DNA of 50,027 bases from the NCBI GenBank assembly GCA_964350645.1, contig CAYGJY010000001.1, positions 274,621 to 324,647 of the forward strand, written 5' to 3'. The position numbers and the translations under genes were made by a program. This document shows, piece after piece, positions 35,393 through 38,550 of this stretch; the stretch's first letter is position 1; every line of letters begins with the position of its first letter. A model generated the notes under the pieces. The model was not told the DNA's origin. It ran no database searches and saw only the letters and a program-made list of their open reading frames with translations. This stretch comes from an uncultured Candidatus Saccharibacteria bacterium (GTDB lineage Bacteria > Patescibacteriota > Minisyncoccia > Phycocordibacterales > UBA918).

Positions 35393-36748
35393 TTATTTTT
35401 CTTCGGGTGTCTGATCTTCTTTGCTTGAAAGAAGAATGTCGATGCGGTTGATGTCTCGCGGGAAGAGGGCCGCTTCTTTCACGCTCCCGAGTCCGAGGAA
35501 CTTCTGGGTGAGGCGTTCTAGTCCCATCCCCCACCCACCGTGTGGCGGGATTCCGTATTTGAATGCCTGGCGGTAGAAACTGAAGTTTTCTGGATCAATC
35601 CCCTTGGCTTTAGCTTTTTCAATCAACATCCCCTCACTGTGGACCCGTTGGCCACCAGTAGTGATCTCAACCCCACGGTACAAGAGGTCGAAACTCTTGG
35701 TAAAACCAGGGTCAGTCTCATCTTCCATCGTGTAAAACGGTCGCTTGGAGACTGGGTAGTGAGTAATAAAGATGAAGTCTGACCCGAGTTCGGTTTTCGC
35801 ATATTCACAGAGCCAGCGTTCATCTTCTGGTTCGAGGTCTGGTTCTTTGGTCTTGTCTGCGCCAGTTTTCTCCTTGATCAGCTCCTGGGCTTCCCGGAGC
35901 TTCATGTGTGGGAATAGGTCACCTTCAGGCGTTAGGGGCAGAGTGGCCCCAAGAAGCTCAAATTCAGCTGCACAGGCCTCTTTTAGGTGAGTGACGATGT
36001 GTTGTAGAACTTTGGTTTCTACCCGCATGACATCAAGATGATCGGTGATAAAGCCCATCTCTGCGTCGATAGAGGTGTATTCATTGAGGTGACGCGTCGT
36101 TGCGTGTTTTTCAGCCCGGAAGACGTTGCCAGTGGTGTAGACTCGCTCAAAGACACCAACCATAATTTGTTTGTAAAGTTGAGGGCTGGTTGCCAAGTAG
36201 GCGCTTTTCCCTTTGAAGTAGTCGGTCTTAAAGACTTCTCCGGTGCCTTCAGCATCTTCACCAATTAGTTTCGGAGCTTGGAACTCTGTAAAGCCATCAG
36301 CATCAAGAGCGGCTCGGTAGGCTTTCATGATCTCACTTTGCACTTTGAAGATGGCTCGCTCTCGCTCGCGACGCAAGGTCAGCGGACGGAAGTCCATCAT
36401 AGTGTCTTGGTTGAGGTCGGTGTCAAGATCAAATGGTAATGCTTCTGACTGGTTCAGAATTTCTATGGCCGTGATCTCAAGCTCGATATCACCATTCATG
36501 ACGTCTTTGTTTACCATCTTCTCCGGACGCTGGTTGACGACCCCGGTTACCTTGAGGGCTGACTCTGGACGGGTGGTTTTAGCCACTTCCAGTACTTCAG
36601 GTTTACCAAAAACAACACCTTGGATAACGCCAGTGTGATCACGAAAATCAAAGAAAGCCATCTTCCCTTGATCGCGTACAACATCGACAATCGCATGTAC
36701 GGTTACTTCCTTTCCTGTTTGTTCTTGTAAGTTATTTATTTTTGTCAT
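35393..36748 (-). CDS. aspS: Aspartate--tRNA ligase, archaeal/eukaryotic type (possibly non-discriminating)
   Basis: 451 aa without the bacterial GAD insert; SPQLYKQ, FRAE.H.T.RHLNEY, EITTGGQR, PPHGGWGMGLERL, FPRD. Confidence 0.93.
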   Translation of the reverse strand: MTKINNLQEQTGKEVTVHAIVDVVRDQGKMAFFDFRDHTGVIQGVVFGKPEVLEVAKTTRPESALKVTGVVNQRPEKMVNKDVMNGDIELEITAIEILNQSEALPFDLDTDLNQDTMMDFRPLTLRRERERAIFKVQSEIMKAYRAALDADGFTEFQAPKLIGEDAEGTGEVFKTDYFKGKSAYLATSPQLYKQIMVGVFERVYTTGNVFRAEKHATTRHLNEYTSIDAEMGFITDHLDVMRVETKVLQHIVTHLKEACAAEFELLGATLPLTPEGDLFPHMKLREAQELIKEKTGADKTKEPDLEPEDERWLCEYAKTELGSDFIFITHYPVSKRPFYTMEDETDPGFTKSFDLLYRGVEITTGGQRVHSEGMLIEKAKAKGIDPENFSFYRQAFKYGIPPHGGWGMGLERLTQKFLGLGSVKEAALFPRDINRIDILLSSKEDQTPEEK

Positions 36749-36749
36749 G

Positions 36750-37085
36750 TTAATTAATTTTAGGATTGATAATTACAATGAGTTGGTTATTACTTGCTGT
36801 TCCTTGAATAATTTCAACTAGTGAGTCTGCATCTGAGATTCGGCCACAATCTGTTTTGAAAGATTCGTACTGATCTAAATATGTAGGGTCTGTTCTAAAC
36901 TTTAAGAAGAAAGCATTCGCACTAGTCTCAACAGATGTATTATTTCTCAACTTTTCATATGAATCTGTGTCAAATTCAAGAAGTGTAAAGCCATATTCAA
37001 TTGCTAATCTCTTGATTTCACTGACTGTCCGTCTCACTATTTCTTCAGGTGTTTCAATAGCTTTATGACTGTTTTCATTAAACAT
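36750..37085 (-). CDS. Hypothetical protein (111 aa) between the T-box and aspS
   Basis: ATG right after the T-box hairpin; stop 1 nt before the aspS ATG. Confidence 0.6.
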   Translation of the reverse strand: MFNENSHKAIETPEEIVRRTVSEIKRLAIEYGFTLLEFDTDSYEKLRNNTSVETSANAFFLKFRTDPTYLDQYESFKTDCGRISDADSLVEIIQGTASNNQLIVIINPKIN

Positions 37086-37232
37086 AAAATCGCCCCTACG
37101 GACATATTACGCTAATAATACATTCGTAGGGGCGATTACGATCAGGTGATCGTGCATCGCGGTGCCACCCTACTTCGGCTCAAATGAGCCCTCTTCATTA
37201 GTACCTCAGCGGTGTCAGTCGCTTCGTCGGTT
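37086..37232 (-). ncRNA. Minimal T-box riboswitch (Asp specifier)
   Basis: AGGGTGGCACCGCG T-box bulge, antiterminator/terminator pair, K-turn Stem I with loop ACUGACAC, Stem III; upstream of aspS. Confidence 0.88.
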
Positions 37233-37238
37233 AGTTGT

Positions 37239-37267
37239 AGGATAGCGCCAATACTTACCTTAGTCAA
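37239..37267 (-). promoter_or_regulatory. sigma70 promoter of the T-box/aspS unit
   Basis: TTGACT-17 nt-TATCCT. Confidence 0.7.
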
Positions 37268-37277
37268 TAAATCACTC

Positions 37278-37600
37278 TTATTCTGCGTACTCAAAATTCC
37301 TGAAATATTGATCATGTCTCATACTTTTTCCACTTTGGATAATCCTATGAAGACCAGGAAGGTGTGGGTTTGGTGTCCTGTTGATAATCACTGTTTCTTT
37401 GAAATTTAGCTTACCATTGATCCCTAGTGTACACAGTGCAAAATGAGTTTCTGGACTCACGACTATATTTTCGTCTTGGTAAGTTTTGACTTCACATATT
37501 AGATACACTACATCATCATAAATATAAATTTTGTATCAGGCTTAATTACCGGTTCTTTTATTGATTCATGCAATCGGGTTTTTTCATTGTGATCTTCCAT
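37278..37600 (-). pseudogene. Probable frameshifted hypothetical gene
   Basis: ATG 37600 (MEDHNEK...TKFIF) stops at 37508-37510; another frame continues YDDVVYLICEV... to 37278; one extra base joins them. Confidence 0.45.
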
Positions 37601-37611
37601 GTTGTTTTAAG

Positions 37612-38550
37612 TTAGGATAATAGACCAATCTTTTTATGAATATCGACCATTTTGGCGCTGGCTCGGGCGCGGGCCTTTTCACCACCGGCCTTGAGAACGT
37701 CCATGACATCAGCGTCGGTGATTTGATTGCGCTCTTCGCGCATAGGTCCGATGACAGCTTCAATGTCAGCCAGGAGGGCTTTCTTCAAGTCGCCGTATCT
37801 TCCCTTTTTTTCTTCGTAGAGTGCTGCTAATTCTTCTTCTGTCTTAAACAGTAGATGGATGGCATGGACATTTTCTGGATGGGTTCCTTCTGAGTCGGTC
37901 ACAATACTCATGACTGCCCTCTCAACTTCAGCTTCAGTGCCAAACAAAGGAATCGTGTTTTTGTAGCTCTTACTCATCTTTTGACCATCAACACCTGGGA
38001 TCACGCCAACTGCTTTCATGATGCGTTCTTCGGGCATGGTAAAGGTCTCGCCGTAAGCGTTGTTGAACTTAGTTGCGGCTTCACGAGTGTATTCGATGTG
38101 TTGCCGTTGATCTTCACCAACTGGTACTACTTCAGTGTCATAGAGGAGGATGTCAGCGGCCATCAGCATTGGGTAGTTAAACAAGCCAGCGTTCGCCTCA
38201 AGGCCTTTGGCGACCTTGTCTTTGTACGAGTGTGCTTGCATAAGAAATGGCACGGTAACAAGACATTCGAAAATCCAGGCGAGTTCAGTGTGCTCTTTCA
38301 CATCTGATTGTTTGAATAGGATCATCTTGTCTGGATCGATACCAGCAGCCAAATAATCCTTCACCGCGTTGATGGTGTTTTGTCGAAGAACTTCAGGGTC
38401 GCGCACGGTGGTAAGTGCATGATAATCAACCACCATCAAATGGCTATCGAATTCATCGTACATGTCTTTAAACGGCTTCAAGGCACCAAAGTAGTTGCCA
38501 ATATGCAGGGCGCCAGAAGGCTGTAGTCCAGTCAGTAGTCGTTTTTTCAT
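37612..38550 (-). CDS. trpS: Tryptophan--tRNA ligase
   Basis: TGLQPSG.LHIGN, YPMLMAADI, VGEDQ.QH, KMSKS. Confidence 0.97.
   Translation of the reverse strand: MKKRLLTGLQPSGALHIGNYFGALKPFKDMYDEFDSHLMVVDYHALTTVRDPEVLRQNTINAVKDYLAAGIDPDKMILFKQSDVKEHTELAWIFECLVTVPFLMQAHSYKDKVAKGLEANAGLFNYPMLMAADILLYDTEVVPVGEDQRQHIEYTREAATKFNNAYGETFTMPEERIMKAVGVIPGVDGQKMSKSYKNTIPLFGTEAEVERAVMSIVTDSEGTHPENVHAIHLLFKTEEELAALYEEKKGRYGDLKKALLADIEAVIGPMREERNQITDADVMDVLKAGGEKARARASAKMVDIHKKIGLLS

Follow-up and report, generated by a model that had tools for sequence, protein, structure and literature searches.

T-box leaders with an ultrashort Stem I were reportedly described by Sherwood et al. in 2015 for actinobacterial ileS genes. 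Here, we compare with them a leader found upstream of the aspartyl-tRNA synthetase gene aspS in a 50,027-nucleotide (nt) stretch of contig CAYGJY010000001.1 (hereafter the window, meaning this whole stretch), which belongs to a metagenome-assembled genome (MAG) of Patescibacteria/Paceibacteria, as the suggested host among candidate phyla radiation bacteria implied. Both the actinobacterial leaders and the window leader have a kink-turn (K-turn) beneath a very short Stem I, carry the specifier codon in the terminal loop and are devoid of a platform for the tRNA elbow. The actinobacterial group, named 'class II' in TBDB, also shares with the window leader an extra hairpin on helix A2, the same T-box bulge and the purine flanks of Stem III. 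However, the ileS T-boxes need a Stem II S-turn and a Stem IIA/B pseudoknot for tRNA binding, neither of which is present in the window, and they hide the Shine–Dalgarno (SD) sequence (PMC7583486), whereas the window leader ends in a terminator and a U run, in a genome that scarcely uses SD sequences. Relatives of the window leader, including its sister L032, have a Stem II domain as in ileS T-boxes, but combine it with terminators.

The glyQS T-boxes resemble the window leader in a different set of features. They have neither Stem II nor IIA/B, a flexible single-stranded linker after their K-turn projects the discriminator, and they act through transcription termination, as we propose for the window. 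In contrast to the window leader, with its Stem I of four base pairs (bp) and its GAC codon, they have a long Stem I with a distal motif stacked on the tRNA elbow and an all-G-C codon, GGC. A dual role is assigned to the K-turn, which positions Stem II or, without Stem II, projects the discriminator (PMC7583486). Judged from its sequence, the window leader unites the ultrashort Stem I of the ileS type with the absence of the Stem II domain seen in the glyQS type, seems to operate at the level of transcription, and departs from the defining features of both established reduced subtypes. We consider it probable that the element is an authentic T-box leader specific for Asp, from which the whole Stem II/IIA-B domain has been lost, which, like its relatives, retains only an ultrashort Stem I, and which controls termination in response to tRNA. 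Its parts, in window coordinates, are the following.

37267-37262, minus strand: -35-like hexamer TTGACT, read from the sequence, its position kept among relatives including the sister leader L032
37244-37239, minus strand: -10-like hexamer TATCCT, with a 17-nt spacer on its 5' side and the K-turn 7 nt to its 3' side
37231-37203, minus strand: ultrashort Stem I, 29 nt in total, delimited from sequence, RNAfold and the family alignment with its pair counts
37231-37229, 37228-37226 and 37225-37224, minus strand: 5' side of the K-turn, with ACC, the GAC bulge and GA
37223-37220 / 37211-37208, minus strand: 4-bp stem of Stem I, AGCG / CGCU
37219-37212, minus strand: Stem I loop ACUGACAC, 8 nt, alternatively read as an A.C-closed CUGACA
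37216-37214, minus strand: specifier GAC (Asp), with U on its 5' side and A on its 3' side, matching tRNA-Asp GUC
37207-37206 and 37205-37203, minus strand: 3' side of the K-turn, with GA and GGU; the C-stem is ACC/GGU and the tandem is GA/GA
37202-37191, minus strand: single-stranded linker ACUAAUGAAGAG, 12 nt, at the site occupied by Stem II and IIA/B in the sister L032
37190-37177, minus strand: Stem III, a hairpin GGCUCA-UU-UGAGCC, with GAAGU on its 3' side (37176-37172)
37171-37128, minus strand: antiterminator AGGG-UGGCACC-GCGAU...AUCGC-CCCU, delimited from sequence, RF00230 alignment and RNAfold
37171-37168 with 37131-37128, minus strand: helix A1, AGGG with CCCU
37167-37161, minus strand: T-box bulge UGGCACC, 7 nt, between A1 and A2
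37160-37156 with 37136-37132, minus strand: helix A2, GCGAU with AUCGC
37152-37139, minus strand: extra hairpin CGAUCA-CC-UGAUCG atop A2
37137-37125 / 37100-37088, minus strand: arms of the terminator hairpin, outer 13 bp AAUCGCCCCUACG / CGUAGGGGCGAUU, the stem being lengthened by inner A-U-rich pairs
37087-37080, minus strand: U-rich tail UUAUGUUU, 6 U in 8 nt, including the AUG of a 111-aa open reading frame (ORF)

The element-by-element description given in the original prediction, which had been made from the letters of this DNA, holds base for base, and all its coordinates are exact on the minus strand. The K-turn agrees with the sequence consensus in its 3-bp C-stem, 3-nt bulge and tandem G.A/A.G pairs. 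Only 32 nt separate it from helix A1, and as these hold the 12-nt linker, Stem III and its 3' purines, no space is left for a Stem II. The proposed combination of an ultrashort K-turn Stem I with the loss of Stem II is thus borne out by this gap together with the 29-nt Stem I, in which the long stem with its distal tRNA-elbow platform is missing. The linker ends in AAGAG, in agreement with the RRRxG purine string as defined in PMC7583486, and both purine flanks in the motif 5'-RRRxG-Stem III-AA-3' can be recognized in AAGAG-GGCUCAUUUGAGCC-GAAGU. The 5' arm of the terminator shares the 3' strands of A2 and A1, so that terminator and antiterminator are mutually exclusive. The sensing core, counted from the K-turn through the last antiterminator base, is 104 nt long.

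By its core, the element is a member of the T-box family, as read from alignment and predicted folds. The Infernal comparison with Rfam RF00230 suggested in the original prediction confirmed the T-box assignment, since Stem III, T-box and antiterminator aligned with high posterior probability, at a score below threshold (35.1 bits in a relaxed search of 601 nt, E 3.8e-6, against a gathering score of 93). Across the whole genome (935 kb in 6 contigs, 96.7% complete), the leader was recovered with an E-value of 1.4e-6, and the single other site scoring with RF00230 lies upstream of the threonyl-tRNA synthetase gene thrS (35.7 bits). At gathering thresholds, Rfam gave no match in the 50-kb window, and none of 61 related genomes had an RF00230 match above the cut-off (36 of them had sub-threshold matches), as anticipated by the remark that standard models could miss such elements. 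A model of our own, R1, built from 10 leaders with Stem III left unstructured, retrieved from the genome this leader (94.4 bits, as a training member), the thrS leader (22.5 bits, E 2.2e-4) and nothing else; its reach is limited, with 8 of 151 class genomes matched, including that of the window. RNAfold reproduces the helices listed above exactly; the minimum-energy fold of the full leader is the terminator (-56.9 kcal/mol, z -3.9, equalled by 0 of 200 shuffles), and that of the leader deprived of the 3' arm is the antiterminator (-38.1 kcal/mol, z -3.55, 1 of 200 shuffles).

The tRNAs of the same genome fit the two leaders. ARAGORN identified a tRNA-Asp whose anticodon is GUC, within the loop CUGUCAC, and whose discriminator is G73; it matches both the specifier GAC and the bulge UGGC, as had been deduced for the discriminator from the bulge itself. 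The thrS leader has a loop CUACCAA (ACC, then A) and a bulge UGGA, and the discriminator of tRNA-Thr(GGU) is U73. Such an agreement between leader and tRNA for both the Asp and the Thr T-box of one genome is very unlikely to occur by chance. A chance resemblance was rejected on the basis of the RF00230 E-values, the tRNA match and the conservation of the Stem I module. The RF00230 alignment placed a Stem I at 37346-37300, which we also rejected: this site is upstream of the promoter-like pair, which keeps its place in 23 of 36 relatives, the sister locus has there an unrelated sequence and a terminator-like hairpin, and the conserved module is the K-turn/GAC hairpin. It can be added that tRNA-Asn(GUU) of this genome also has G73 and could, on paper, pair with GAC through one G.U.

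To place the leader among its relatives, we assembled a set of 56 leaders, 41 of aspS type (UGGC), 13 of thrS type (UGGA) and 2 unassigned. From the scan of the 61 genomes, 31 loci were taken, all with a T-box core, and the next long ORF is AspRS- or ThrRS-like by its N-terminus in 29 of them; in the other two (L007 and L023), the leader precedes an ORF matching neither synthetase by N-terminus. A protein search with AspRS gave 80 loci from Patescibacteria, Paceibacteria, Kaiserbacteria and similar groups, of which 25 carry a T-box core no more than 1.5 kb upstream, 8 are short of upstream sequence and 47 have none as judged by pattern; in many of these 47, aspS directly follows the end of a trpS-like gene. 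Representative downstream synthetases were checked against protein families.

The Stem I module could be delimited in 37 aspS-type leaders, 35 of them distinct. Within these 35, the first GA of the tandem is invariant and the second is found everywhere except in L032 (AA). The pairs vary: the second pair of the C-stem is C-G in 32, G-C in 2 and U-A in 1; the first pair of the stem is G-C in 20, G-U in 5, C-G in 5, A-U in 3 and mismatched in 1; the third is G-C in 15, A-U in 17 and U-A in 2; and the top pair is G-C in 26, A-U in 2, A.C in 5, including the window, and A.A in 1. The alternative Watson–Crick pairs at these positions amount to compensatory changes and indicate that the module is more than a chance arrangement. 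In 28 of the 35, the loop reads CUGACA, alone or extended by one C or A; the A that follows the codon never varies, and the U before it is present in 34, L067 having an A.

The codon in the loop follows the synthetase downstream, as would be expected of a specifier and as the original prediction proposed to examine. Of the 41 aspS-type leaders, 36 have GAC and 3 have AAC (L024, L091 and L094), while for L029 and L047 no Stem I could be found in the 200 nt examined. A hairpin loop with UACCA is seen, by eye, in each of the 13 thrS-type leaders. In L131 and L136, an ultrashort loop with AUC stands before IleRS, and in L140 one with GUC stands before ValRS, in each case according to the family check; the gene after the AUC loop of L138 could be assigned only to a class I synthetase of the I/L/M/V type, and L139 was placed by likeness. 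Two further AAC loops, in L149 and L161, stand before ORFs resembling bacterial-type AspRS (by eye). Among the AAC leaders of the aspS set, L091 and L094 precede an archaeal-type enzyme and L024 a short bacterial-type one. An AAC specifier fits a non-discriminating AspRS that provides Asn-tRNA via transamidation.

Transcription probably starts at about 37232-37235, a few bases upstream of the K-turn. The promoter TTGACT-17-TATCCT put forward in the original prediction is present in the sequence, and its position is conserved, although the strength of the match alone is at chance level (4 sites against 3.0 +/- 1.5 in shuffles). In 23 of the 36 related leaders with sufficient upstream sequence, a -35/-10 pair ends 4-11 nt 5' of the K-turn (mean 0.3 and maximum 2 in 200 shuffles). 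This conserved position next to the K-turn argues against a long Stem I hidden upstream, and in L032 a terminator-like hairpin is even found 5' of the -35 element. A motif scan of the minus strand from the terminator to aspS revealed no further promoter-like site.

The closest relative of the window locus in AspRS trees is L032 (81% identity, support of 99 in both trees), and its leader has the Stem II S-turn, IIA/B and Stem III. The two leaders have in common the layout TTGACN-17-TATNNT, 7 or 8 nt, K-turn, and their 3' halves are almost identical, with two compensatory pairs in the terminator, where C-G and G-C of the window leader correspond to U-A and A-U of L032; as MAFFT misaligned the 5' half across the deletion, that half was compared by eye. 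The window leader looks like a leader of the L032 type from which about 60 nt, the Stem II domain, have been removed. Since its closest relative retains this domain in full, the loss would be recent.

Similar reductions were observed in other aspS-type leaders, which were sorted as follows.

Class A, 9 leaders: Stem II with S-turn motifs (GAGGGAAGAA...AGUAGAACCCUCC), a IIA/B-like element and Stem III
Class A without III, 4 leaders: as class A, minus Stem III
Class A2, 5 leaders: a short hairpin replacing Stem II, IIA/B and Stem III
Class II only, 2 leaders: Stem II alone
Class B, 10 leaders including the window: Stem III kept, no Stem II and no IIA/B
Class C, 8 leaders: no Stem II, IIA/B or Stem III
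Class Asn, 3 leaders: Asn-type, differing in detail

An ultrashort Stem I is thus accompanied by a Stem II hairpin in 20 of the 41 leaders, 18 of which also have IIA/B. All 10 class-B leaders keep the specifier GAC, the bulge UGGC, an antiterminator and a hairpin at the position of Stem III; these hairpins have unrelated sequences and range from 4 to about 20 bp, with RRRxG-like purines 5' and GAAGUA or a near variant 3'. The distance from the K-turn to A1, 32 nt in the window, is 41-70 nt in the other class-B leaders and 22-41 nt in class C, compared with 70-127 nt in the measured leaders with Stem II and IIA/B and 51 nt in L105, where Stem II occurs alone. The shortest core from K-turn to antiterminator end among the relatives is that of L081 (86 nt). 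The trees comprised 71 rows, namely loci with a clean frame by the ORF-picking pattern (L069, L076, L105 and one locus of class A without III are left out), and were built with FastTree and a quick run of IQ-TREE, in which a warning concerned two long branches that meet elsewhere and leave the window–L032 pair unaffected. At a minimum, class B (8 rows) requires at least 5 changes on the tree and class C at least 3, while the Stem II state changes at least 8 times among the rows with a T-box. On the AspRS tree as reconstructed, the loss of Stem II is recurrent.

The class-C leaders (L045, L048, L049, L050, L055, L070, L078 and L081, all upstream of aspS) show no hairpin between the RRRxG-like purines and A1, where fold energies are 0 to -1 kcal/mol; L078 has only a small hairpin, at the position of Stem II. 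Their K-turn, specifier (GAC), bulge (UGGC), antiterminator and terminator are all retained. In a 2024 paper, Stem III is stated to occur in all T-boxes identified so far (PMC11404447).

These data suggest the following scenario. Transcription would begin a few bases 5' of the K-turn. In uncharged tRNA-Asp, the anticodon GUC would then pair with GAC, the codon in the loop, and the 3'-terminal GCCA with the bulge UGGC. Through the K-turn and the flexible 12-nt linker, the domain formed by Stem III and the antiterminator could reach the acceptor end. The antiterminator would be stabilized in this way and RNA polymerase would continue into the 111-aa ORF and aspS, whereas with charged tRNA, or none, the stronger terminator and its U run would form and the transcript would stop. 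We rate the probability that the bare RNA of this leader switches through these two contacts as even to somewhat better than even. The broader proposal, that natural T-boxes can work co-transcriptionally with the loop–loop codon–anticodon and NCCA–bulge contacts alone, in need of neither an elbow platform nor a Stem II clamp and with a core of about 100 nt, that this state was reached repeatedly in Paceibacteria, and that some lineages even dispense with Stem III (cores of 86-103 nt), we regard as evenly balanced.

The original prediction had left the choice between termination and sequestration of the ribosome-binding site. It is quite improbable, in our view, that control is mainly translational, with the 3' arm of the hairpin hiding the AGGGG of the 111-aa ORF as in the actinobacterial T-boxes with ultrashort Stem I. 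This AGGGG (37097-37093) does lie in the 3' arm of the terminator, 7 nt before the AUG at 37085, and both an ultrashort Stem I and A2 insertions are described as features of translational T-boxes, in which such insertions are frequent (PMC7583486). However, motifs resembling SD sequences are nearly absent genome-wide: upstream of 468 long ORFs, whose starts were guessed as the first ATG, GGAG and GAGG occur 5 and 10 times at a spacing of 4-11, and GGGG and AGGG are not enriched at SD spacing relative to positions further upstream (5 versus 5 and 6 versus 7). A scan of the assembly for the 3' end of 16S rRNA with an 11-nt motif gave no match. The aspS gene itself, which starts 1 nt past the stop codon of the 111-aa ORF, has no SD sequence. 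The relatives share the hairpin and the U run, and their start codons are found tens of nt past the hairpin (20-60 nt or more) with no SD sequence. At least four U follow the terminator stem in at least 27 of the 41 relatives in a targeted hairpin search, a lower bound as the script selects another hairpin in about 7 leaders, and the window has 6 U in 8 nt. The U runs, the distant starts of the relatives and the scarcity of SD motifs favour transcription attenuation, so termination appears likelier than sequestration, and the AGGGG may add little. Just past many terminators (L013, L021, L045, L049, L055, L066 and others), we noticed a conserved run of the type UUUUCGUUUCUCC, which is able to pair with the 3' arm of the terminator (GGAGGGGCGA) and would give a third alternative hairpin; the window has no UUUUCGUUUCUCC.

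Several observations weigh against a functional tRNA-gated terminator. In ileS T-boxes, a truncated Stem I without Stem II hardly binds tRNA, and transcriptional T-boxes generally require a long Stem I (PMC7583486); by this standard, the window leader should bind poorly. The GAC:GUC pairing is weaker than the GGC:GCC pairing invoked for Gly T-boxes devoid of Stem II, the uppermost pair of the window's Stem I is A.C, seen likewise in 5 of 34 relatives, and the leader classes were sorted by eye, only B and C being also folded. Moreover, a T-box is missing altogether at 34 of the 71 loci in the AspRS tree, which suggests that the element is dispensable in this group and that the reduced forms could be disappearing. 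The leader might then be a decaying relic which ceased to respond to tRNA after the loss of Stem II, aspS being expressed by leakage through the terminator or from another start. The essential role ascribed to Stem II once Stem I is truncated (PMC7583486), the A.C mismatch and the T-box-free loci, where aspS often comes directly after trpS, all fit this explanation, which we nonetheless consider unlikely. With its intact terminator of 13 bp or more and its U run, an unresponsive leader would throttle the single AspRS gene that we found in the genome, which is presumably essential and whose product probably supplies Asn-tRNA too. The specifier, bulge, antiterminator and terminator are all intact, there are compensatory changes between the window and its sister, and the forms without Stem II arose at least five times, with the other parts kept each time. 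The pair at the bottom of A2 is G-C in the window, as in 13 of the 18 class-B and class-C leaders, and G-C can substitute for the G.U sensor pair and is reported to sense charging too (PMC11404447).

It could also be imagined that the leader works with a substitute for Stem II, either a protein bound to the K-turn or to the codon–anticodon helix, or additional pairing in the loop. The U 5' and the A 3' of the codon face A37 and U33 of the tRNA, this U-codon-A pattern is found in the loops of aspS (34 of 35), thrS, ileS and valS leaders, and the tRNA-Asp loop CUGUCAC would allow five pairs on paper. However, U33 is engaged in the U-turn in solved T-box complexes. A small ORF, a conceivable helper, follows 4 of the 10 leaders that keep Stem III without Stem II, but these ORFs are mutually unlike by BLASTP, that of the window has no relatives, and no K-turn-binding protein of the L7Ae family was found in the 96.7%-complete genome. 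We therefore judge such a substitute very improbable and retain a tRNA-gated terminator with an ultrashort Stem I as the preferred interpretation.

If the preferred interpretation is correct, a functional tRNA-sensing RNA about 100 nt long would provide the smallest natural scaffold for engineered tRNA-responsive switches, and the window may represent the smallest natural form of the T-box switch. Leaders that lack both tRNA supports and retain the other functional parts offer a direct test of the two-support rule, and the window and L032 constitute a natural deletion pair for comparing binding and read-through. T-boxes are common in Patescibacteria: an RF00230 scan of the phylum at E <= 0.001 gave matches in 51 of 151 sampled genomes, and only 5 of the 151 exceeded the cut-off, from which it follows that these T-boxes are likely absent from annotation and from TBDB. 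Existing T-box models were built on Bacillus glyQS and actinobacterial ileS leaders. The short-Stem-I model of TBDB was applied to Actinobacteria only, and sequences under 100 nt were dropped (TBDB), so that its pipeline has probably not caught the form seen in the window. The literature that we searched contains no description of the doubly reduced form or of T-boxes in Patescibacteria, although supplements, such as the model figures of TBDB, could list such cases.

The genes around the leader are arranged as follows.

36750-37085, minus strand: orphan 111-aa ORF, the first gene past the leader, with its AUG at 37085
35393-36748, minus strand: aspS, 451 aa, beginning 1 nt past the stop of the 111-aa ORF
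37612-38550: trpS, upstream of the leader

The AUG behind the hairpin had been taken for the start of aspS; it opens instead the 111-aa ORF, and aspS begins 337 nt further on. This ORF matches no Pfam or NCBIfam family, finds itself alone among 5.8 billion clustered proteins (word-indexed search, 'near' lengths) and gave no lead in the Atlas, where all scores are below 0.8. An orphan ORF of about 100 aa lies between leader and aspS in five loci (the window, L011, L025, L038 and L046), four of them without Stem II, and the five ORFs have no mutual BLASTP match at E <= 0.01. AspRS consists of a class II core and an OB anticodon-binding domain and exceeds the cut-offs of both NCBIfam aspartate--tRNA(Asn) ligase families (NF003483, 480.6 versus 353; TIGR00458, 381.4 versus 368.4), in support of the archaeal type originally proposed. 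The enzyme is probably non-discriminating. GatB was found in the genome and no protein scored above the cut-off for AsnRS, so the enzyme probably supplies both Asp-tRNA and, for transamidation, Asn-tRNA.

Between trpS and the promoter of the leader, a stretch of about 345 nt (37278-37600, minus strand) contains only ORFs of 30 and 76 codons without Pfam families and may be a decayed gene or a spacer. A strain variant from one DNA run differs at 12 positions and by one insertion within 37376-37571 and has an identical leader. In four DNA runs from a single study, one of which may be the source, the near-identical strain contigs carry an unchanged leader and two differences in the 111-aa ORF, too little variation for any inference. 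Two contigs of other organisms in these runs match only in the T-box core.

The thrS T-box of the genome (G000:C1:123846-123981; L001 1501-1636, minus strand) has a clear terminator, followed by about 190 nt to the start codon. In the 13 thrS-type leaders, AGAGAUUG stands 5' of the specifier hairpin and CCUAAUCUG 3' of a second, variable hairpin, and a pairing AGAUU-AAUCU is possible (by eye); if it holds, the specifier hairpin of thrS lies inside a larger junction and not on a K-turn. Finally, L148 and L158 are glycine T-boxes (UGGA) upstream of ORFs that look like GlyRS, with a very short hairpin whose terminal loop apparently holds GGC (by eye). As no Stem II is evident by eye in L148, the doubly reduced form may extend beyond aspS.

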